The notes under the pieces were generated by a model. It ran no database searches, had not been told where the DNA came from, and saw only the letters and a program-made list of their open reading frames with translations. The position numbers were made by a program, and so were the translations under genes. This document shows, piece by piece, positions 3,001-61,177 of a stretch of 64,000 bases of DNA. Every line of letters begins with the position of its first letter. The stretch's first letter is position 1. Source of the stretch: an uncultured Christensenella sp. (GTDB lineage Bacteria > Bacillota > Clostridia > Christensenellales > DTU072); assembly GCA_964620655.1 (NCBI GenBank), contig CAZUJW010000004.1, positions 18,611-82,610 of the forward strand, written 5' to 3'.

Positions 3001-6000
3001 AGAGTCTTGGCTTTCAACTGTTCTTTTTCGGAATCGGTGATACCGTATTTTACGTTGACGTAGGCGGAGCAGTAGGAATCCACCGTGCCTTCGACAAAAG
3101 ATCTCTTTCTTGCGGTCACGTTGGTTTCGCTGTTTCCGTCCGTATCGTAGTGGCTGCCTTTCATTTCAAGGAAGTCAAGGTTTGCAGCCGTCATACCGCC
3201 GACAATGGCGTTAAGAATTTCGGGCGTGGCTCCCGCGAAAGAACTTATCATTGCCGATAAGAAGTTTTCCACCGCTTTTACCATATCTTTTTCGGTGGCG
3301 AACAGAACCGCGTTTATAGTATCGGCTTTCTTTTCGGCGTAATCGGAAGCTATCTTCGCTTTAAGCGATGTGCTCATCTTGTCGATGCTCGTAAGATTTT
3401 CTTCCTCGAGTACGTCGTAAATAAACTGCATCTGATTTACGCCGAAACCTTTGTATGTCTTGCCCGAAGCCACGCTGTCGGATATAGCGTCGGCTACCTG
3501 AGCGGAAGTCATTCCGCTAAACGTACTCTGTGCGGAAGTGATAAGGGCGCTTATTGCATTAGCTACTCTCGTCTTTTCTCCGTAGTAGAGATAATCGGTG
3601 GCGGCGGAGCTTATTATATATTCCGCTATGCTCTTTCCGCCTAAGATATAGTCGTACAGAGCCGTGTTTTGTTCGGCTGTGAGTCCCGACAGAACACTAA
3701 TCTTGTTCTCGGTCATAGCGTTTGCTATCACGCCTATCTGCTTAGCGGTGTATCCGCTGTTAAGAGTACTCGAAGCCACGTTCTGCATAGCGGAGTCGAA
3801 ATCGGTCAACGCCGAGCCTTTCGTTTCGGGTTTTATAAAGGTGCTCGATTTAACAGTGCTGCCCTTTTCGCCCTCGTTGAGTTTTTCTGCGTCGAGTATT
3901 CCGCCGACGAGACTTGCCACGTCTATTCCGTCGGTGGTAATCATCGTTTCGAAATCGGTGCCCGAAAGCATACTCATAATCATCGCCGCAAGGTCGATAC
4001 CGCTTATGCTCGCTCTGAAAAGTCCGAGAGTGCCTAAGTCGGCGTAAACCACTCCGTCGATGTAATAAAGACCTATCATGACTTCGTCGTTATAGGTTAT
4101 TTCCAACTTCAACACGGACTTAGCAAAATCGGTAAGGTCTACGCCTAAGTCGAGACCGACGCTGAAAGTCATCGTGGTATCCTGCAAGTCGAACAAAATA
4201 GTGTCGGCTTGGAGACCGAGTATCTTTTCGAGCATGTCTTCGAAACCGGAAATAACTTCGCTCTTGTCGTCCGAACCGGGGTTTTTGGTCTGCAACGTAA
4301 GGTCGAGATTAAGACCTATATGCAAGTTCTTCAATCGGTCTATCGAAGTGTAATCGTCCTTGTCGTCGTCGCTTACGATAGTCATATCGGTCACTTCGCC
4401 GAGTTTTGCTCTCGGTTTCATGTGAGAGTAACTCTTATCGAAGTTGTAACGAATGGAGAACTGCTTGTTTTCGTCCAACACAAACTGAATACCGTTTACC
4501 TTATCCGCGTCGTCGCGACCTATCTTAACGTAGCTGAACGTCGGGATATTGAGTAAAGCGTCGGGAAGAATTCCGCCGAGCAAGTCGTTAAGGTTGCCCA
4601 CCAAAGTAAGGAGCAACGCGCCGGTTATAGCAATGCTTGCTTCTTCGTCGGAGTAGATAAGCATAAGCATGTTCTGCCCGAATTCCATATCCGCTATATC
4701 CTGATATCTCTGAGCGCGTTTTTCCGCGTCGGTAATATCGTTGCCGACGTTGCCGTCAGCCTGTTGCGGAATAATTTCCTGTTCGTCGTTACTTAGTCCG
4801 GTTTCTATCTTTTTAAGGATGTCTTTGACGAGTTTGCCTAAGTTTACGTTGCTTAACGAAATCTTCGGCAAGCCGAGACCCGAAAGGTCGAGATAAACAG
4901 TGCCGTCATCTTCCGTCCCTACGTATTTTATGGAGAGTATTCTCTGAACCAACGAGCCGTTGCCGTCGCCGTGCGCTACTTCCAGCTCGAACCTAAGTTT
5001 ACTTATATCCGAGAAATCTATGTAGGAACGTAACGCGAACAGTATCTCTACGTCGAGCGCGTCGCCGCTCTTAATATTGAAGCCGAGTCCGTTAATAAGA
5101 GAAGCGGTAAGTCCCGAAAGATCGAGAGCGGTGTTGAAATCGTCGTTTATGTGGAACGAACTGTTGACTTCGGTCACCCAGACGTAGTTCTCTAAAGGTT
5201 CGTATCCCGTCGAGAACTTTTCGGAAATGTTTTCGCCGAAGAAGTTTTCTTTCTGTCCGAGTCTTATGTCTATATCCGACAAACCGAAACCGAAGTCAAT
5301 TTTAGAAGTGTTGACCACGTTGCCGTTTTCGTCATAAACGGGAGCGTCGAGAGGAATAGTCAGGAACAACGTGTTGTTGATGTTGTCGAGTTCCAACTGA
5401 ATGTTGCCGAGTTCTGCGAATTCGAATCCGAACAGAGCCTGCAAGAAGGCGTTTACTATCGTGGTGGCAAGACGAATACCTATCGTGCCTTTACCGAAAG
5501 TAAGACCTTCTATTACGTCGCTCCAATCCATGTCGTCTACAAGAGCGTCGAGAGAAGCGGCGTTCTGCGCGGCGGCGTTACTCATATCGATATCGTAACG
5601 AGAATCGCTGTCGAGGAGATAGAAGAAGATGTTGACAAAGTTGATGTTAAACAGGTTATAACCCATTTGCGGCGTGAGAAGCAGTTTGTCGTGCAAGCCG
5701 TCTCCGCAATCAACGTAAATCTTCGGATCGAGAGTTCCCGTGCCTTCGCCGTCATGGTTAAGGAGTCCGCCGACGAAGTAGATATTGAATATGTTGACGT
5801 TGTCGCCGTTATATCCGCTTACGTAGAAGTCGAACGCCGTCTGTTCGAGGTCGATATCGAGACCTATGTCGAGACGAATTCTTCCGCTGGCGTTCTTCAA
5901 TATTTTGAGCTGGAAGAAGGTTTCTATTTCCTGAACGCTGAACAAGTCGCTCCAGTCAAGTATGGATTTAAGCACGTTGCTTTCAAGATAGATGCTAAAA

Positions 6001-9000
6001 CTTACCGTGGTACGCGCGCCGATTACCGAAGCGAGTATTTCGCTGAGGGTAGCGGACGTGTCTACGTTAAGTCCGAGCGCGAAGAAGTCTTCGAAGAAAC
6101 CGTCTTTATACAGTTCGTCTATCGAGCCGTACAGACTGTCGTACTTAGCCCTGTCGAGACTTACCACGGTGTTTCTTAACAAAGCGAGTTCCGCGTCGTA
6201 ACCTATCTTGTCGCTGCCTTCTTCGGCGTTCTTTCTTATGCTAAAACTCAGACCTAAGTCGTCGCCGTATTCTATGGCGAGTTCTCCTTCGGTAAAGGCG
6301 AGATTAACCAAATCTTCGAGGTCGCTGCTCAACGTTTCTTCCTTAAAGATTACTTTGACGAGTTCTGCTAAGATATCTACGGTAAGAATAAGAGCGGTTT
6401 CTTTCGAACCTATACGGAGCAATACTTCAAGTACGTCGGCAATGCTGCTGTCGGCGTTGTTTACGACGGAATAGAGCTGTTCGAACGGGTTAAGCATATT
6501 TTCCGCTTCTTCGCGGCTTACTCCGTGGTATGCGCTCATTACGGCGGAATTCAACGCTCTTATCGTAGCGGCGGAAGAGCCGCTCGTTTCGTCGCTTTCT
6601 TCCGTTCCGCCCGACGGATTTACTATACTGATAATCTTTTCGCCGAGAGCAAAAGGTATCTTTGCGCTGACGTGGCTGTCAAAGAGTTCTACCTGAGCGT
6701 AGATATTCGGTCCGTAGAGCCAGATATGGATAAGGACTTGCTCGAATCTCGTGTTTTCGCCGTTGGTGTCGTGGTCGATAAGGTAATAGGTAAGAGCAAG
6801 CTCGCCTACTATAGAACTGTTTATTCTGTCGGTATCGCCCGAAAGCAACGCTTCGAAGTTAATGCCGAGCTGTCCTTCTATCGTAGCGTACAGGGTATGT
6901 TCCGCAAGGAAGTCTATATCGAGTTCGCTAAGTTTAACGGGCAGGTTAATAAGGTTAAGAAGCGGGTTGATGTCAAGACGACCTTCGTCGAAGTTTATCG
7001 AAAGCGAAGCGTTAAGGTTTACTCTCAGAGTAAGGTCGGAGTATTCGATATATTCCGCTTTCTCGTCGTCGGTAAGAACGTCTTTAATAAGCGATACGCT
7101 CGTACCCGTTTCGTCTTCCTGGTATCTCTTTATGTCGAAGAGTATGCTCGTATCCTTGCCCGAAATACCTAATGACAGCGTGAGATCTGCCAATGCTTCG
7201 GCGGATTTCAACGCATTCTTATAGATTTGATCGAAGCTCTTTATTAAGGTAGAGCTGCCTTCGAGTACCGATACGAGTCCTATTATCGCCTGCGACTGCT
7301 TGTAGGAGAGATATTTTTTAAGTATATCGCTCATTTCGTCGAAAGTAAGGTACTCGGTGACGTCGCTTTCGCCGCTTACGGCGAGAGTTTCTTTAAGGGC
7401 GAGAGCGTTCTTTATTTCTTCGCTTGCTTTGAAAGAATAATACTTGTTCCAGATATAGGAAGTAAGGTATTTTTCGGGTTCGGCAAGGCTAAGGATTGCG
7501 CTTCTCGTTTCTGCGTACGCAGCGGACGTAACTTCGCTTAACGTCTTACCCGACGCGAGATAACTTTCTATTTCGTCGCTGAGAGCTATAAGGGCGAGAG
7601 CTTTTTCCTGCGCGGTGGAAGTCGAGTCTATTCCTTGTCCTTCCACGAAAGATTGAAGAAGCGGGTCGTTTGCTCTAATCGCGGCGGCTATATCGTCATA
7701 ATTTGCCGCGAGAGCGTTTCTGAACGTAACTTCGGTAATGGTAAGGTATACCGCGCTGTTTACGTCCTTAGCGTAACCGTCGAACTTCTGTCTGTAAATT
7801 TTGTTGATACCGCCTATATTGCTGCTGCCCGCCATAAAGATTACGCTGAGCATATCTATATAAGCGTCGCTTACGTCGCTTACGTCGCTTACGTCGTATC
7901 CGTAACCTGAGATAAGGTTCTTCGTTTCGGTGCGTTTAGCGACGGTTTCCGCAGTAGTAAACAGAGCGGAATATTCTTTGGAAAGAGAAGCGAAACTTTC
8001 GTAATACTTAGCGAGCGTAGCCAGCATATTTTCTGTCGCGCCGAACGTGAGGTAATTGTCTCTCACGAACGCGACGAAGGCTTTTCTTATTTCCGTCATC
8101 TTTTTTACGGTATCGTCGTTACCGGTAAGAACGCCGTTTCCTTTAATAACGGTGGCGAGCGTTCTCAACTTGCCGTCGGAAGTAAGCACGCCGTCTTCGG
8201 TAAACTTAGCCGTTTCGTCGGCGAACACGTTAATAAACGAGACGAATCTCGAATATTCGCCGGGGATAACGAAACCGCTGAACGCGCTTGCCGCGGCGGT
8301 AATCGTGTTTACGTTAAGTTCCGAACCGGTGGTGATTTCAAAATATATCTGTTTAAGTAACGCTATCGCTACGGTAGCGTATTCGTCGTACAACGCCGCC
8401 GCTTTCGTTCTGAAATCGCTGTAAATCGTTCCGTTGCGTTCGGAATAGATAAGCTCGGTGAAGTATTCGTAAGCGGTTTCGTAAACCTTATTTTCAAACG
8501 CCGCGCCGTAGCTGTTTAATACCGAGTCGAAATCTGAAACCACGCCTGCGGAGAGTTTACCCGCGACGTAGGACTTGTAAATCTTCTCCATAAGGAGAGC
8601 CTCGTTTTTATCTGTAAGAGTAAGCAAAACTTCCGTTCTGTCCTTTTCGTACAGTCCGACGGTATCTTTGTCGGTCTGCGCCGTAGACGAACCGAGAGCC
8701 GAAACGGCATCTTTCAATTCGTCGAACTTAGCTATATAGTCGTTATACTCTACTTTCGCGTCGGTTCCGCCGAAAAGCGAGGTGATATATCCCTTCGCAA
8801 AAAGCGAATCGAACATATTTTCGGCGGTCTCGTAGTATACGGAATAAATATTGTTTCTGTAACCGACGAGAGTAGCGTCGGAATCGTACCAGGTATCGAG
8901 GCAGAAAGAATACACCTTGGTCAGAAGTGTCTTTATGTCTATCGTGGTTTCGTTATCCTTAAAAAGGTTTTCCCAACCGAGAGCGGCGGTACGATAATCG

Positions 9001-56087: not shown

Positions 56088-57062
56088 ATGAAAAAAAAGG
56101 AGAAAGTCTCGTTTTTTATAACCCTCATCGTTACGGTAATTTTGCTTGCCGTAACCTTTTCCGCCGCGGTAATCGGTTCTCTTACCGAACGCAGCGCGTT
56201 AAGCGTGATGGGCGAAGCGGGACTTGACGTATTTATGGCAGGACACACTTACGTTTCACCCGAGAAGACCGATAAGAAAATCGAAAAACGCCGTAGAAAA
56301 AACGCCGATTATTCCGTCCCCGACATTTGCAAAACGATGTACTCTTTCGAAACGGAAAAATTCGACGGCAACGAAGTATGCTACTTCGGCGAAGAAACCG
56401 AAAAGAAAATAATCTACTTCCACGGCGGCTCTTTTATGTGGCAACCGCTTTTGGTTCACTTCGCTTACTGCGAACGCCTGAGTAAAGAACTTGACATACA
56501 GGTAATTATGCCGATTTATCCCAAAGCTCCCGAATATAAATACGATTACGTTCTGGAATGGCTGTACGACTACTACGTTACTCTCGGCGGCGAATTCTAC
56601 TTCATAGGCGACTCGGCGGGCGGCGGCATACTCCTTTCCTTTTCTCAGTTTTTAGCCGACAGGAACGTAAGCGGCGCAAAAAAACTGATAGCGATTTCAC
56701 CCGTACTCGATATCGCCTTAACCAACCCCGAAATAGACGAATACGCTCCTCTCGACCCGATGCTTAACAAAGCCGACCTTGCCCGCAAAATGGCGACTTA
56801 TTCGGGCGACTGCGACGTAAAAAGCCCCTACGTCAGCCCCTTGTACTGCGACTACTCGAAGTTAGGGAAAGTCACGATAATTACGGGTACGCACGACATT
56901 CTATACCCCGATACCAAACTTCTCGACGAAAAACTCACTTCCGAAAATATAACGCACAACTATTGGGTGTACAAGTACCAAACCCACGTCTTCGCCATCT
57001 ACCCTATGCCCGAAAGAACGGTAGTGCTTAACAGAATAAAAGAAATAATTTTCAACGAGTAG
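56088..57062 (+). CDS. Alpha/beta hydrolase fold-3 esterase/lipase with N-terminal TM/signal anchor
   Basis: It has the oxyanion-hole motif IYFHGGSF and the nucleophile elbow IGDSAGGG (GDSAGG, hormone-sensitive-lipase-like family). The N-terminal hydrophobic segment is FFITLIVTVILLAVTFSAAVIG. Confidence 0.85.
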   Translation: MKKKEKVSFFITLIVTVILLAVTFSAAVIGSLTERSALSVMGEAGLDVFMAGHTYVSPEKTDKKIEKRRRKNADYSVPDICKTMYSFETEKFDGNEVCYFGEETEKKIIYFHGGSFMWQPLLVHFAYCERLSKELDIQVIMPIYPKAPEYKYDYVLEWLYDYYVTLGGEFYFIGDSAGGGILLSFSQFLADRNVSGAKKLIAISPVLDIALTNPEIDEYAPLDPMLNKADLARKMATYSGDCDVKSPYVSPLYCDYSKLGKVTIITGTHDILYPDTKLLDEKLTSENITHNYWVYKYQTHVFAIYPMPERTVVLNRIKEIIFNE

Positions 57063-57071
57063 GGTAAAATA

Positions 57072-57282
57072 AGTGAAGTTGCGTGTTTACACGCAGTGAA
57101 GTTCACCTTACGGTGAGTGAAGTTGCGAGCCTGCTCGCAGTGAAGTTTGCAATTATCATTGCAAGTTAAGGATAAGAATAGCAGATACAAATAGTGAAGT
57201 TCGGCTATTGCCGAGTGAAGTTGCCGCTTTGCGACAGTGAAGTTTACCTTACGGTAAGTGAAGTTTGCGACTGATAGTCGCA
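57072..57282 (+). repeat. Array of 8 units: constant 9-mer AGTGAAGTT followed by a variable 12-17-nt palindrome (two blocks of four)
   Basis: The 9-mer occurs at 57072, 57095, 57116, 57139, 57193, 57214, 57236 and 57257 (period 21-23 bp). The intervening palindromes are gcgtg-ttta-cacgc, cacc-ttac-ggtg, gcgag-cctg-ctcgc, tgcaat-tatc-attgca, cggc-tatt-gccg, gccgc-tttg-cgac (imperfect), tacc-ttac-ggta and tgcgact-gat-agtcgca. Confidence 0.9.
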
Positions 57283-57373
57283 AGATATTGATAAATATAA
57301 GATAATAGACATACGCATTTGCGTACGATTATTTATAAAAATATATCGTAATTGAGTAGTAAAAATCATAAAA

Positions 57374-57408
57374 AGTCGTTAGACGCAAACTAACGACTTT
57401 ATTTTTTT
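57374..57408. terminator. Bidirectional rho-independent terminator between the convergent esterase and radC genes
   Basis: agtcgttag (57374-57382) pairs with ctaacgact (57390-57398), a perfect 9-bp stem with loop acgcaaa. It is followed by ttattttttt on the plus strand and preceded by aaaa (giving ttttatgattttt on the minus strand). Confidence 0.75.
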
Positions 57409-57422
57409 GTTTATCCGCAACT

Positions 57423-57511
57423 TGCGACGGTAGTCGCAAACTTCACACGGCGTAGCCGTACTTCACTATCGCATTGCGATAACTTCACTTTTGCGTAGCA
57501 AAAACTTCACT
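57423..57511 (-). repeat. Opposed array of 4 units of the same 9-mer (as AACTTCAC[T/A] on the plus strand), each preceded by a variable palindrome
   Basis: Each unit is a palindrome followed by the 9-mer:
- tgcgac-ggt-agtcgca (57423-57438), then aacttcaca (57439-57447).
- acggc-gta-gccgt, then tacttcact (57459-57467).
- atcgca-t-tgcgat, then aacttcact (57481-57489).
- tttgc-gta-gcaaa, then aacttcact (57503-57511).
The innermost hairpin is nearly identical to the innermost hairpin of the forward array. Confidence 0.85.
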
Positions 57512-57513
57512 AC

Positions 57514-58257
57514 CTAAAACGGATACTTCTTATCCTTATCGTGTTTATACATAGGGTACACCGACTGTTCGCCGGTAGAAAGGCGACAGCGTAAAAAGTA
57601 GCTGTATGCGTAATCTCTGCTTATTATAACGTGGTCGATAAGTTTAACTCCGATAGAGTGAAGCAAAGTACCCGCCATATCGGTGCCGTCGGTATCGGCT
57701 ACGCTCGGAGCAACGAGTTTCGACGGGTGGTTATGGGCAAGAATGACTTTCTTGGCGTTGTTTCTTAATACTGTCGCCACCAAATCTTTCGTGGGAAGAG
57801 CGATAGAATCGGGCGTACCGTAGGCAAGCGTGTCGCAACTTATTAGTTCGTTTTTCTCGTTGAGACTTATCGCGACGAGTTTTTCGGTAAGGTCGTCGGC
57901 GAATAAATCCCTCAGGTAGGACAAAATATTATTCGGTCCCAAAATCTTTTTGTCGGAGAGTTCGGTTTTAAAAACGGAATCGTAAATTTCGCCGTAAGAT
58001 TTTAATAAAAGAGCGGCGTTTTTAGTCACGTTCCTGACTTGCATAAGTTCTTTCACGTCGGCGAGAAAAACGTTTTTTAACGTGCCGAACTTCGCCAGCA
58101 ACTCGTACGCTATCGGTTTGGTATCCTTATACGGAATCCCGTAAAACAATAAAAACTCCAACACCTGATAGGGCGGGAGATAACGCAAACCGTTATGTTC
58201 CACCACGTAGCGGACTCTTTCTCGATGTCCGCTATGCGAAGAAACGTTAGTTTCCAT
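57514..58257 (-). CDS. radC: RadC-family JAB-domain protein
   Basis: From ATG 58257 the translation begins METNVSSHSGHRERVR. It has HhH-like LLAKFGTLKNVFLADVKELMQV and the JAB motif ILAHNHPSKLVAPSVADTD (HNHPSx...PSxxD). The track start at 58383 would overlap the upstream gene; ATG 58257 lies 4 nt after its stop. Confidence 0.85.
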   Translation of the reverse strand: METNVSSHSGHRERVRYVVEHNGLRYLPPYQVLEFLLFYGIPYKDTKPIAYELLAKFGTLKNVFLADVKELMQVRNVTKNAALLLKSYGEIYDSVFKTELSDKKILGPNNILSYLRDLFADDLTEKLVAISLNEKNELISCDTLAYGTPDSIALPTKDLVATVLRNNAKKVILAHNHPSKLVAPSVADTDGTDMAGTLLHSIGVKLIDHVIISRDYAYSYFLRCRLSTGEQSVYPMYKHDKDKKYPF

Positions 58258-58261
58258 AGGC

Positions 58262-61177
58262 TTATAACACCACCACTCCGTATTCGGCTGCGGGAGCGAC
58301 GAGATAACCGGTCTTACCGTAAACCACGGCGAATCTCGTGGTTTGTTCTCCCGTAACCAATTCCATAATAAAGTTAAGAGCACAGTTTATTGCGGTAGCA
58401 ACCACGTCCGCGTCCACGTCGGCAAGAGCTACTTCCTTATCCTTTTTAAGGTCGTAAAAAGCGATTTCTATTCCGTCGGGGCGAGCTTCGAGTTGCGTTC
58501 CCGCTACGGCAAGCACGTCGTTTATCACGGGAATAACGACGTCGAACAATTCTCCGTCGGTAATCTTTTTAAGTTTATCCATCTTAGCGGTAAGCACTTC
58601 GCATTCGGAAGTCTTTTCGTAAGCAAGGTCTTTCGCGGCTTCCGACACGGCAAGGCGCGTGGCGGCTTTGTCGTACGCCTTTTCGGCAGCGTCGACTTCG
58701 GCTCTCAGTTCCGAATGGTCGTCCTTCTCGAAGTCGTCGGCTTTGTATCCGTCGAGAGCGGCTATCTGAACGTCGAGAGCATTAAGATCGGTGTGGAACT
58801 TTTCTATCTCGTCCGCGTATTCGGCACGGGTCTCTTCGTCCAACACGCTTTCTTCGTCGGTTTCTTCGACTTCTTCTATTACGATAGCGTCTATTCTCTC
58901 TTTAAGTTCGTCTGCGGAAGTTATACAACGATTAAATTCGGCTTGTTTCTCTTCGACTTCCTTTCTTAATTCGTCGGCTTCTTTTTCCGCTTCGGCTCTC
59001 GCTACGTCGGACTTCTTTATTTCCGCCATGACGTCGGCGAAGATTTCGGCGGTAACGTTGACGTACATGTCGGCGTTGCCGTTGTCGGAAGAGAAGGTAT
59101 TGTCGCCGAGAACGGTATCTCCGCTGATTTTTGCGATGAGTTCGTCTTCTATTCTCTCTTTTTCTATAATGTCGTCGAGACAGTTAAGAGCCTGTTTGCC
59201 GTCGAGTTCGGGCCGAATGGCTTCGTCGTAGGCTTTCTGCATGATTCCCAACTTGTCTTCTTCTTCGGCGAGAGTCTTCTTGTCTTCTTCTGTGGTAGCG
59301 GCTATATTTGCGAGTTCTTCTTTAAGGAAAGCTATGTGTTCTTTCACGGCTTCTTCGTCGCCGCCGAGAAGTATAAATCCCCTGAACTTTCTTTCGAGAT
59401 CGGCTACCGTCTTGACTCCGTAGGACGAAAGAAGAGCGGTAAGTTCTTTCCTTTCTTCCTTTACCTTTTCGCTTAGTTCGTTGACGGCGTTTATCATAGT
59501 CGCGTTGCGTTCGGTAAGCTGACTTAATCTTACGTCGATTTTATGAAGTTTTTCCGTGCTTTCAGCTAAAACGTCGTTACTTTCTTTTGCGTCGGCTTCG
59601 ATATTCTTAACGCCGTCTTTTACTTTGTTCATTTCTTCGGTGAAAGAGTTCTTATCGTAAATTCTGCCGTTGCAAACGGGGCAGATACCGCCGATTTCGG
59701 CGTTTTTAACGGTGGCGTCGAAAGCGAGTTTCGCCTTTTCGTCGATTATGCAAACGTTAAGGTAGTCGGCTTTCGCTTTTACTCTTCTTATATATTCTTC
59801 ATGAGCTGTTTTAGCCTTTTTGAGAGCGTTGATATCTTCGAGAAGGGTTTTTCTTTCTTTAAGCAAGTCGCGGATTTTTTCTTCGTTGTCGGCGGCTTCC
59901 TTTTCCAACGCGTGCGCTTTTATTTTCGCTTCGTGCAAGGAAAGTCCTTCTTCTTTGTTTTTTACGGCGTTTTCGTCGGTTTCCGCCGGCAGCAACGCTT
60001 CGTTTACGGCGATTTCTCCGCGTATTTTTTCTGCGAGAGCTTCGTTTTGTTCTATCTTTACGTTAAGGTCGGCTATTCTTAACTTGGAATTGTCGATCGA
60101 ATTTTCGAACGCTACGCCTTCTCTTATGGCACGGCGTTTGCGGTAGGACAGGTGGTTCTTTTTAAGTTCTTCCGTAGCGGAATCCGCATCCTTGTCTTCT
60201 GAAAGGGTGGCTACCACGCCTTCGGTCTTCTTTACTACGGCTGCGGTAAGTTCTTTATCGTCGAGATTGGCGTATAGGATATCGCCGAAACTGTCTCTTA
60301 ACCCTGCTGCCCTTTCGGCGTGCGAAGCGGCTTCTTCGGTCTTTTCGTTCACTTTAAGTTCGACAGCGGAGATTTCTTCATGCAACTTTTCGAGTTCCGC
60401 CACCTTGTCGTCCAACTGAACGTGCAACGCTTCTTTTTCTTCAGCGGCTTTACGGGCTTCTGCGTTTTTTTCCTTTCTTAAACGCAAAGCGTCGTCTTTT
60501 GCGATAATTTCTTCTTTTTCTTTAATGCCTTCTTCGTTTTTAAGAAGATTTTCTTTGCGTGCGGCGAGGCTGTTCTTTAAGGCTAAAACGAGTTCTTTTT
60601 CTTCTGCGGACCGTTTCAGAAGGTCCACCTTGTCGAGTTTTTCCTGCAAAGCGTCAAGTTTCGCTTTCTTTTCGGCGGCGACAGCTATGTAGGAGTCGTC
60701 TACAAGCTCGTCGTACGCTTCCACTTTGGACACGCATAAAGAATGGTCTTTGTAATAAATTTCCCAACGTTTTTCGAGTTCTTCCCCGTCGAAACCGAGT
60801 TCGGACAGGTATTTCTTAACGAAAGAAGAAACGTCTTCTATAAATTCCGCTCCGTTTACGGGGGCGGCGTTTTCTTTCCACTGTTTGCGTTTAAGTCCGG
60901 CTATCTTCGCTATGACTTCCGCACCGTCTTTTTCGCCCGACAATTCTCCGTCTTTATAGACGACCGTATCCGACGAAAAGTCGCGTATTATCTCGTATAA
61001 AGAACCGTCGTATTCGGCTGTCAGAGTTATTTTCCCCGAAAACAAGGCTTCGTTGCCGAAAAGGGCGTATTCGAGAAATTTTATTGCGTCGGCGGGAGAA
61101 TCGACCGAACCGGTAGTAAAATCGTATTCGGCTGTTACGTTTTCGACGTCGTTAACTGCAAGGGTGAGAAGTTTCAT
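58262..61177 (-). CDS. Rad50/SbcC-like long coiled-coil protein with CxxC zinc-hook motif but no recognisable Walker A/B or signature motif
   Basis: GGAGGA lies 5 nt upstream of ATG 61177. Length is 971 aa. The N-terminus MKLLTLAVNDVENVTAEYDFTTGSVDSPADAIKFLEYALFG has the SbcC/Rad50 head pattern, but the GxxGxGK[ST] loop is replaced. About 750 aa are E/K/A/L-rich heptad-like sequence. The central IGGICPVCNGRIYD matches the Rad50/SbcC hook (CPxCG). The C-terminus lacks the LSGGE and hhhhDE motifs. Confidence 0.7.
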   Translation of the reverse strand: MKLLTLAVNDVENVTAEYDFTTGSVDSPADAIKFLEYALFGNEALFSGKITLTAEYDGSLYEIIRDFSSDTVVYKDGELSGEKDGAEVIAKIAGLKRKQWKENAAPVNGAEFIEDVSSFVKKYLSELGFDGEELEKRWEIYYKDHSLCVSKVEAYDELVDDSYIAVAAEKKAKLDALQEKLDKVDLLKRSAEEKELVLALKNSLAARKENLLKNEEGIKEKEEIIAKDDALRLRKEKNAEARKAAEEKEALHVQLDDKVAELEKLHEEISAVELKVNEKTEEAASHAERAAGLRDSFGDILYANLDDKELTAAVVKKTEGVVATLSEDKDADSATEELKKNHLSYRKRRAIREGVAFENSIDNSKLRIADLNVKIEQNEALAEKIRGEIAVNEALLPAETDENAVKNKEEGLSLHEAKIKAHALEKEAADNEEKIRDLLKERKTLLEDINALKKAKTAHEEYIRRVKAKADYLNVCIIDEKAKLAFDATVKNAEIGGICPVCNGRIYDKNSFTEEMNKVKDGVKNIEADAKESNDVLAESTEKLHKIDVRLSQLTERNATMINAVNELSEKVKEERKELTALLSSYGVKTVADLERKFRGFILLGGDEEAVKEHIAFLKEELANIAATTEEDKKTLAEEEDKLGIMQKAYDEAIRPELDGKQALNCLDDIIEKERIEDELIAKISGDTVLGDNTFSSDNGNADMYVNVTAEIFADVMAEIKKSDVARAEAEKEADELRKEVEEKQAEFNRCITSADELKERIDAIVIEEVEETDEESVLDEETRAEYADEIEKFHTDLNALDVQIAALDGYKADDFEKDDHSELRAEVDAAEKAYDKAATRLAVSEAAKDLAYEKTSECEVLTAKMDKLKKITDGELFDVVIPVINDVLAVAGTQLEARPDGIEIAFYDLKKDKEVALADVDADVVATAINCALNFIMELVTGEQTTRFAVVYGKTGYLVAPAAEYGVVVL

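Follow-up and report, generated by a model that had tools for sequence, protein, structure and literature searches.

Gut-1 linker–hairpin arrays between an esterase gene and radC in an uncultured Christensenella: a catalogued motif with REP-like dispersal

Introduction

The Gut-1 motif (Rfam RF01706) was described as four purine-rich RUGAAAU linkers set around three covarying hairpins (Weinberg et al. 2010, Genome Biol 11:R31, PMC2864571). The published account consists of a single sentence that assigns no function and gives 'human gut' as the only source, and it rates the motif as 'RNA: Y', non-cis-regulatory and with covariation present (PMC2864571). The seed alignment contains tandem copies as well as opposing arrays with complementary linker, and in the papers searched we found none on Gut-1 after 2010. 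Here we analyze a 64,000-nt stretch of DNA from an uncultured Christensenella sp. (contig CAZUJW010000004.1 of assembly GCA_964620655.1; hereafter the window), in which the gap between a convergent esterase gene and radC holds three Gut-1 copies, two in tandem and one inverted, with a linker variant of the catalogued motif.

The repetitive extragenic palindromic (REP) elements of Proteobacteria such as E. coli, together with BIME and REPIN elements, are short hairpin units of lineage-specific sequence, dispersed in dozens or more copies and associated with RAYT (REP-associated tyrosine) transposases. They form alternating or inverted clusters, chiefly at the 3′ ends of genes or where two genes converge, differ in presence or absence between relatives, and are often transcribed into 3′ untranslated regions (UTRs). 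The REP palindrome is conserved, and its 5′ GTAG serves as the recognition element. A second relevant precedent is the DNA mini-hairpin, d(GCGNAGC) or d(GCGNNAGC), of Hirao and colleagues (review PMC13037366). Both d(GCGAAGC) and d(GCGAAAGC) melt at 76.5 °C, as against only 39 °C for r(GCGAAAGC), and such motifs are known from single-stranded DNA (ssDNA) priming and promoter sites (PMC13037366); according to a further study, their stability hinges on the closing pair (PMC3201870). The known natural examples (G4 origin, ssiA, N4 early promoters) are single, and none is arrayed with a constant linker.

Identity of the arrays with Gut-1

The Rfam gathering score for Gut-1 is 50 bits (model length 77), and at gathering score no Rfam family was returned by a search of the whole window. 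A permissive Rfam scan (601-nt search) gave three matches to the full length of the model (1–77/77): one at the inverted array (57435–57512, minus strand; 47.3 bits, E 3.2e-8), one at the second plus-strand block (57192–57269; 44.3 bits, E 1.8e-7), and one at the first (57071–57151; 35.2 bits, E 3.6e-5). The blocks narrowly miss the cutoff (35.2–47.3 vs 50 bits) because of their variant linker: it reads AGUGAAGUU, not RUGAAAU or GUGAUAU, and its core, GUGAAGU, is one position off the Gut-1 consensus. Relatives that share the window linker exceed the cutoff (53.4 bits at locus L085; 52.0 and 51.0 bits at L029), and metagenome arrays with the classical GTGAAAT or GTGATAT linkers reach 59–80 bits. 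Each block has the four linkers and three internal hairpins of Gut-1, plus a fourth hairpin; hairpin covariation is present among the family spacers and in the alignment described below; and the window contig occurs in metagenome assemblies only, as befits a motif of uncultivated gut bacteria. Apart from Gut-1, no RNA family or tRNA gave a credible E-value in the region.

Beyond its linker, the locus departs from the usual Gut-1 element in its size (8+4 units, with a 134-bp core and a terminator between the arms, vs a compact pair of about 3–5 units each). The sources also extend beyond the published human gut, since the present loci include goat, sheep, deer, buffalo, and rabbit gut or rumen. 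The first-pass annotation of this DNA had offered a new small repeat family as one reading, to be given up if the motif proved to be a known repeat family; Gut-1 is already in Rfam, and that reading is therefore withdrawn.

Organization of the esterase–radC gap

The 9-mer AGTGAAGTT is found in 12 exact copies in the window, against 0.44 expected and a maximum of 3 in 100 shuffles, and 10 of the 12 fall within 57072–57511; the opposed, ordered arrays of a constant 9-mer and variable palindromes reported in the first pass are thus real. Eight exact copies are on the plus strand (57072, 57095, 57116, 57139, 57193, 57214, 57236, and 57257) and two on the minus strand of the array (57481–57489 and 57503–57511). 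When one mismatch is allowed, two further minus-strand linkers appear, TGTGAAGTT at 57439–57447 and AGTGAAGTA at 57459–57467. The earlier count of eight plus-strand and four minus-strand units is accordingly confirmed, the four inverted linkers being two exact and two near-exact copies. Outside the gap, the 9-mer recurs twice (19560 and 40119, both on the minus strand) and not once as first counted. Linkers are spaced at 23/21/23 and 21/22/21 bp on the plus strand and at 22/22/20 bp on the minus strand. The intervening palindromes measure 11–17 nt per unit; symmetry is perfect in 11 of the 12 spacers, a result reached in 0.5% of shuffle trials. The near-identity claimed for the innermost hairpins of the two arrays holds, as they share the stem TGCGAC/GTCGCA (TGCGAC-TGATA-GTCGCA vs TGCGAC-GGTA-GTCGCA). 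The features of the gap and its flanking genes are as follows.

56088–57062, plus strand: alpha/beta-hydrolase (esterase/lipase-like) open reading frame (ORF), with Pfam PF07859 Abhydrolase_3 and PF10340 precomputed for the identical protein; its stop codon lies 9 nt 5′ of the first linker
57072–57163, plus strand: array block 1, four AGTGAAGTT–hairpin units from the 9-mer search, with hairpins GCGTG-TTTA-CACGC, CACC-TTAC-GGTG, GCGAG-CCTG-CTCGC, and TGCAAT-TATC-ATTGCA
57164–57175, plus strand: array-end motif AGTTAAGGATAA, recognized by eye
57193–57282, plus strand: array block 2, four units from the 9-mer search, with hairpins CGGC-TATT-GCCG, GCCGC-TTT-GCGAC (one C·A mismatch), TACC-TTAC-GGTA, and TGCGAC-TGATA-GTCGCA
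57283–57416, no strand: AT-rich core by composition, 134 bp, 24.6% GC (window 46.7%)
57310–57327: small hairpin within the AT-rich core
57372–57400, both strands: bidirectional intrinsic terminator AAAGTCGTTAG-ACGCAAA-CTAACGACTTT with an 11-bp stem, from terminator scoring
57409–57422, minus strand: end motif AGTTGCGGATAAAC of the inverted array, as read on that strand
57423–57511, minus strand: inverted array of four units, with linkers at 57511–57503, 57489–57481, 57467–57459 (AGTGAAGTA), and 57447–57439 (TGTGAAGTT) and hairpins TTTGC-TAC-GCAAA, ATCGC-AAT-GCGAT, CGGC-TAC-GCCG, and TGCGAC-TACC-GTCGCA
57514–58257, minus strand: radC (ORF and Pfam PF04002), 247 aa; 2 nt separate its stop codon from the inverted array's first linker

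The central hairpin qualifies as an intrinsic (Rho-independent) terminator on both strands, having a GC-containing stem followed by a T-run: an A-run lies upstream and a T-run (57402–57408) downstream, so that both strands end in T-rich tails. The bidirectional terminator of the first-pass annotation is confirmed, with its 9-bp stem at 57374–57408 revised to 11 bp at 57372–57400. No terminator was found between either stop codon (esterase or radC) and its array, and transcription in the linker sense should thus run through both arrays as far as the shared terminator; the earlier proposal that each convergent transcript would carry its array in the same sense agrees with this position. When the whole region is folded as one strand, block 2 and the inverted array zip together (z = −10.9). 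The array-end motif has relatives elsewhere, as forms related to AGTTAAGGATAA (AGTTAAGG, AGTTGCGG, AGTTGTGG, and AGTTATGG) end many family arrays by eye (e.g., L024, L033, L048, L016, and L079), and a relative of 88% identity (L124) has the end motif of the inverted array as AGTTGTGGATAAAT. The stretch is base-for-base identical in two independent public assemblies, and two Logan contigs end within the arrays, where breaks are expected because the DNA is repeated.

A 94-aa ORF on the minus strand (56999–57283) overlaps the plus-strand arrays and could be mis-annotated by gene callers. It was rejected as coding: its repeated AACTTCACT ('NFT') is an artefact of the 9-mer, and the unit periods differ from locus to locus and do not fall on multiples of 3. 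A CRISPR array was rejected as well. The loci resemble CRISPRs in that a constant element alternates with variable ones in a regular array, but the constant part is a non-palindromic 9-mer (vs repeats of 23–50 nt), the variable parts are palindromes of 7–17 nt that are not protospacer-derived, and the arrays have 3–8 units in both orientations at many loci with no cas-like genes seen nearby. The first-pass exclusions of CRISPRs, DnaA-box arrays, dif, and classical REPs all stand.

Dispersal across gut and rumen Clostridia

The genome-wide search proposed in the first pass was made on one genome per species, with two nearby 9-mers required, and returned at least 117 loci, with bona fide arrays in 82 loci among the matches listed. 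Among the loci listed, the carriers are nearly all metagenome-assembled genomes of gut or rumen Clostridia (Ca. Scatosoma, Christensenellaceae, Acutalibacteraceae, and Oscillospiraceae). Arrays are present on two contigs in at least 10 assemblies, and the flanks contain a further independent cluster roughly every 65 kb, a density that the window matches; 17 of 91 clusters are at contig ends. The proteins flanking the arrays are unrelated (67 singletons), for which reason a gene common to the loci was rejected, and the genes enclosed by paired clusters are likewise ordinary ones, among them those for a helicase-like protein and genes of a phage capsid region. Blastn found no matches to the element in plasmid and phage collections, and a phage or plasmid origin was rejected on that ground. 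Of 102 viral contigs with two nearby 9-mers, about 5 hold real arrays; the others are ordinary tandem repeats with non-palindromic spacers and serve as a negative control. A rare viral case is the predicted viral contig L154 of IMG/VR, where composite clusters at 3844–4056 and 7847–8059 bracket a block with phage capsid-like ORFs.

At five loci (L025, L029 (697), L071, L081, and L096), the composite element described in the next section is followed by a gene for a 23S_rRNA_IVP four-helix bundle (PF05635, E 5e-24, 117–121 aa), which starts 20–30 nt past the element, leaving no room for a promoter; the L071 copy is truncated at the locus end. The five are probably one orthologous locus, since at least three have homologous flanking genes and the five proteins are near-identical.

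Architecture and structural conservation of the family

The unit is a constant non-palindromic linker of 7–9 nt (AGTGAAGTT here; GTGAAAT or GTGATAT in other lineages) joined to a short hairpin of free sequence and fixed design, with a C-G closing pair and a loop of 3–4 nt. Arrays contain 3 to 8 units. The commonest form is a compact composite, in which an array of about 3–5 units is followed directly by an inverted array of about 3–5 units, with no AT-rich core. A plus run followed by a minus run is seen in 58 of 111 clusters; almost all pairs are convergent, and the divergent order is rare. The first arm of the composite starts with AACTAAGTT and a TGCCC...GGGCA hairpin and ends with GGGCAAACTT, an end that can also pair with the start of the arm (97.6% of cells paired). 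Many composites have a long hairpin 5′ of the first arm and a long, bidirectional, terminator-like hairpin 3′ of the second. The composite block of 240–390 bp recurs at 78–93% identity, with upstream sequence that differs at each locus and downstream similarity that stops at varying points. A common array ending, present also in the window, is AGTT followed by AAGG, GCGG, GTGG, or ATGG. The window locus is an expanded composite, with two tandem Gut-1 blocks on one side, one on the other, and a center grown to 134 bp; the compact elements fold as the window region does, arm zipped to arm.

Other linker types form similar hairpin arrays adjoining AGTGAAGTT arrays, namely (C)ATGAATTG in L089 (about 700–790 and 3800–3880) and inverse GTGAAAT/ATGAAAT arrays in L095 (about 280–360). 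A UGA(A/U) core is common to all linker variants.

The proposal that the palindromes keep their structure and not their sequence is confirmed across the family. The first-pass point that the linker is invariant also stands. Among 312 distinct spacers (6–23 nt, most of them 7–17 nt), 198 are perfect palindromes (1.2% in shuffles), and 244 have at most one mismatch (9% in shuffles). When 26 composite elements are aligned with plain MAFFT, 93.9% of cells in the four local hairpins are paired, vs 27–44% in slid controls, and cells changed on both sides number 60 vs 13.5 in shuffles (0 of 500). For the first hairpin of the composite element, the local and distal partners pair equally well.

Hairpin design and strand asymmetry

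The design of the hairpins is strict and depends on the strand. Among 196 perfect hairpins, the closing pair is C-G in 169, and the loops comprise 131 triloops and 65 tetraloops on stems of 2–6 bp (except in 7 cases); classical Gut-1 arrays obey the same rule, with C-G closing pairs in 48 of 52. Read in the linker sense, the loops are of the form T-N-Y (TTC, TTT, TAC, TGC, and so on), which on the opposite strand become GAA, AAA, GTA, and GCA. The patterns C-GNA-G or C-GNNA-G are present in 103 spacers on the strand opposite the linker vs 8 on the linker strand, and the canonical mini-hairpin GCGNAGC/GCGNNAGC in 45 vs 3 of the 312. The commonest 7-nt spacers on that opposite strand are GCGTAGC, GCATAGC, GCAAAGC, ACGAAGT, and GCGAAGC. 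Single stem mismatches in the linker sense are A·C in 23 cases vs G·T in 7, which places the wobbles on the opposite strand. Nearest-neighbor energies hardly distinguish the two strands but lean weakly in the same direction: among the cases with a difference, the opposite strand is the more stable in 39 vs 6 with DNA parameters and in 29 vs 14 with RNA parameters.

As a test of strand, G·U vs A·C mismatches are suggestive, with conflicts between parts of the element. Strand indicators are mixed overall, and the asymmetry points to the opposite DNA strand at least as much as to the landing pad for an RNA-binding protein that the first pass had raised as a possible role.

Relatives and genomic placement

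Relatives were compared at the same gap, as the first-pass annotation had proposed. Two of them (L126 and L127, with 65% RadC identity) keep the order of a 971-aa protein and RadC, followed on the opposite strand by the esterase, an iron-containing alcohol dehydrogenase (Fe-ADH), and a glycoside hydrolase (GH31), with no arrays in a radC–esterase gap of 2 nt in L126 and 32 nt in L127. The 88% relative, L124, has the array on the radC side: its first hairpin is identical, its second and third are altered, and its fourth is an unrelated palindrome (CAAAACC-GTT-GGTTTTG vs TGCGAC-TACC-GTCGCA in the window), with the end motif kept. The esterase–radC arrays are thus a lineage-specific gain or loss, given the syntenic relatives without arrays, and as judged from sequence their hairpins turn over fast, given the changes in L124. 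Upstream of radC, the window encodes a 971-aa protein (58265–61177, minus strand) that has no Pfam match at E ≤ 0.001; its synteny with radC is kept in L123, L126, and L127 (970–984-aa proteins).

By context, 19 composite elements are between converging genes, 15 are between co-directional genes (12 oriented with transcription and 3 against), and 1 is between divergent genes. Among 119 arrays, 69 of 103 genes lying on the 5′ side of an array are oriented toward it. Gut-1 arrays also recur beside stable-RNA genes: those at L254 (11163–11357), L045, and L010 follow directly after a tRNA and terminator, that at L284 (1668–2016) stands 200 nt before a tRNA, and that at L103 (3880–4071) stands 60 nt before 6S RNA.

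A separate feature of the window is a stop-free frame of at least 8,445 aa (3–25337, minus strand) that extends past the left window edge. Its N-terminus, MRPKNQESIAQSGKKKSFFSYALMLLLILALVFSIAACSE, resembles a signal or lipoprotein peptide, making it a candidate giant surface protein.

Interpretation

The results above show identity with Gut-1, dispersal, conserved structure, strand asymmetry, and polymorphism in presence or absence. The best reading, in our view, is that Gut-1 is a lineage-specific repeat, scattered through intergenic regions of uncultivated gut and rumen Clostridia, that behaves, by analogy, like REP, BIME, and REPIN elements. We give a probability of roughly one half to the full form of this reading, in which the element is REP-like, acts as a single strand, and in the window is transcribed into both 3′ UTRs. 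Gut-1 arrays share with those elements the short hairpin units in dozens or more copies, the lineage-specific sequence, the multi-copy intergenic dispersal, the units paired in inverted orientation, the preference for gene 3′ ends and converging genes, and the variation in presence between relatives; transcription into 3′ UTRs, common in the known elements, is probable here from the placement of the arrays. The variable linker-to-linker spacing rules out phased binding to duplex DNA, and the design of the units is intelligible only if their hairpins are extruded from a single strand. Extrusion would place the linkers side by side whatever the length of the hairpins, so that adjacent linkers could base-pair with those of an inverted array or be recognized by a putative trans-acting factor conserved across species. 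Such a reader, or else a copy mechanism, is suggested by an exact 9-mer kept over dozens of species while the hairpins drift. Elements would accumulate where they are harmless or useful, at gene 3′ ends and beside terminators. In the window, each array has a stop codon on one side and the shared bidirectional terminator on the other, so that the esterase and radC mRNAs would carry the arrays in their 3′ UTRs; by analogy with REPs, the arrays may act there as structured 3′-end barriers or stabilizers. The hairpin design rule suggests that the primary selection or propagation may operate on the opposite DNA strand, as ssDNA mini-hairpins; as with REP, BIME, and REPIN elements, propagation at the DNA level might then have side effects at the RNA level.

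Several observations weigh against this reading. Gut-1 cannot be a member of the REP family, because its palindrome is free in sequence (312 distinct spacers) and lacks the 5′ GTAG, the constant part being instead the non-palindromic 7–9-mer, and its units are shorter (16–26 nt). A motif scan of the fetched loci and the window found no candidate near the arrays for a mobilizing or binding protein and no cognate RAYT. The sole RAYT-like ORF in that set (L021, about 4533–5079, minus strand, 178 aa; NCBIfam NF047646 E 1.1e-14, below cutoff; Pfam Y1_Tnp E 0.087) is flanked by inverted tandem arrays of a different 27-nt repeat, GTCCTCGACGGTCCGTTTGTAACCGGC, unrelated to Gut-1 units. The window hairpins are longer than those of the family at large, with stems of 4–6 bp and mostly tetraloops, and just 5 of 12 obey the mini-hairpin loop rule. 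Strand signals conflict: the distal X/X′ helix of the composite element has 6 G·U pairs on the linker strand, and the second-arm wobbles of composite elements, 8 to 0, fit a single transcript through both arms. Placement is likewise divided. Some elements stand between a stop codon and the ribosome-binding site of the next gene and must be in mRNA; others begin immediately downstream of an intrinsic terminator, or of a tRNA and terminator, and may be barely transcribed; and canonical terminators are not consistently placed by the arrays (upstream in 15 of 106, downstream in 27 of 106). Finally, transcription of the arrays, and any role that they may have as RNA or DNA, is something that we infer. 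The L021 locus itself has the look of a distinct REP/RAYT system that shares its genome with Gut-1 arrays.

Less probable than the REP-like reading, yet the foremost of its rivals, is a dedicated structured RNA, either a small RNA (sRNA), as in the view of Rfam and Weinberg et al., or a 3′-UTR platform in which (AGUGAAGUU-hairpin)n is functional and its single-stranded linkers titrate or recruit an RNA-binding protein or RNase. The published 'RNA: Y' rating and covariation speak for it, as do the sense orientation of both window arrays between stop codon and terminator, the orientation of composite elements with transcription in 12 co-directional contexts to 3, and the elements that are unavoidably within mRNAs. 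The linkers GUGAAAU, GUGAUAU, and AGUGAAGUU would, judging by their sequences, self-pair antiparallel only as RNA, through G-U and G·A pairs. Against it, no promoter is evident before the arrays, many of which start 0–25 nt after an intrinsic terminator. Many of the hairpins, at 7–9 nt with 2–3-bp stems and triloops, are too weak as isolated RNA hairpins. RNA hairpins usually prefer GNRA or UNCG tetraloops; these are not enriched on the linker strand, and the stabilizing GNA/GNNA loops and tolerated wobbles fall on the other one. The several linker types within one genome would, moreover, require several factors or a tolerant one.

A bolder form of the REP-like reading, which we hold only tentatively and rate a little below the dedicated RNA, is that Gut-1 arrays are not sRNAs and constitute a previously unrecognized REPIN-like class, built of a constant linker and a DNA mini-hairpin of free sequence and acting as ssDNA in the orientation opposite to that of Rfam. 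The arrays would then be tandem hyperstable mini-hairpins of the GCGNAGC type, split by a 9-nt recognition sequence for a putative single-strand-specific enzyme or binding protein.

It is improbable that the arrays are a functionless selfish or neutral repeat, in which slippage between 9-mers multiplies the units and intrastrand template switching, rather than selection, keeps the palindromes perfect. That process would account for the syntenic relatives without arrays, the variable number of units (3 to 8 per array), the whole hairpin swapped between close relatives, and the 'safe' intergenic sites that avoid divergent promoter regions. It fits poorly with an exact 9-mer kept in dozens of species-level genomes, a composite arm A that is 78–93% identical in unrelated contexts, and a strict, strand-asymmetric rule for loop and closing pair, all of which argue for selection or specific machinery. 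An array of duplex DNA sites (iterons, a parC-type centromere, or opposed Ter-like sites around an AT-rich unwinding core), as raised in the first-pass annotation from the 20–23-bp period (about 2 helical turns) and the opposed arrays flanking an AT-rich core in this one window, is rejected as very improbable, for family spacers of 6–23 nt put the linkers out of helical register, an AT-rich core is missing from the compact common form, dozens of loci per genome stand in unrelated contexts where a single locus per replicon would be expected, no rep, par, or tus-like neighbors and no matches in plasmid or phage collections were found, and the palindromic spacers are left unaccounted for.

Implications

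The feature is real and highly non-random, yet it belongs to a catalogued motif, and its value lies in the family rather than in the uniqueness of the locus. Gut-1 arrays break metagenome assemblies and can pass for novel regulatory or CRISPR-like loci. The loci compared here reveal a defined composite architecture, gain and loss between close relatives, and a strand-asymmetric hairpin rule that matches DNA mini-hairpins. A motif that has been in Rfam since 2010 without a function proves to be the building block of a dispersed REP-like system, widespread in uncultivated gut and rumen Clostridia, and an orphan 'sRNA' becomes a testable question: whether it is an RNA 3′-end element or an ssDNA element with a dedicated factor.

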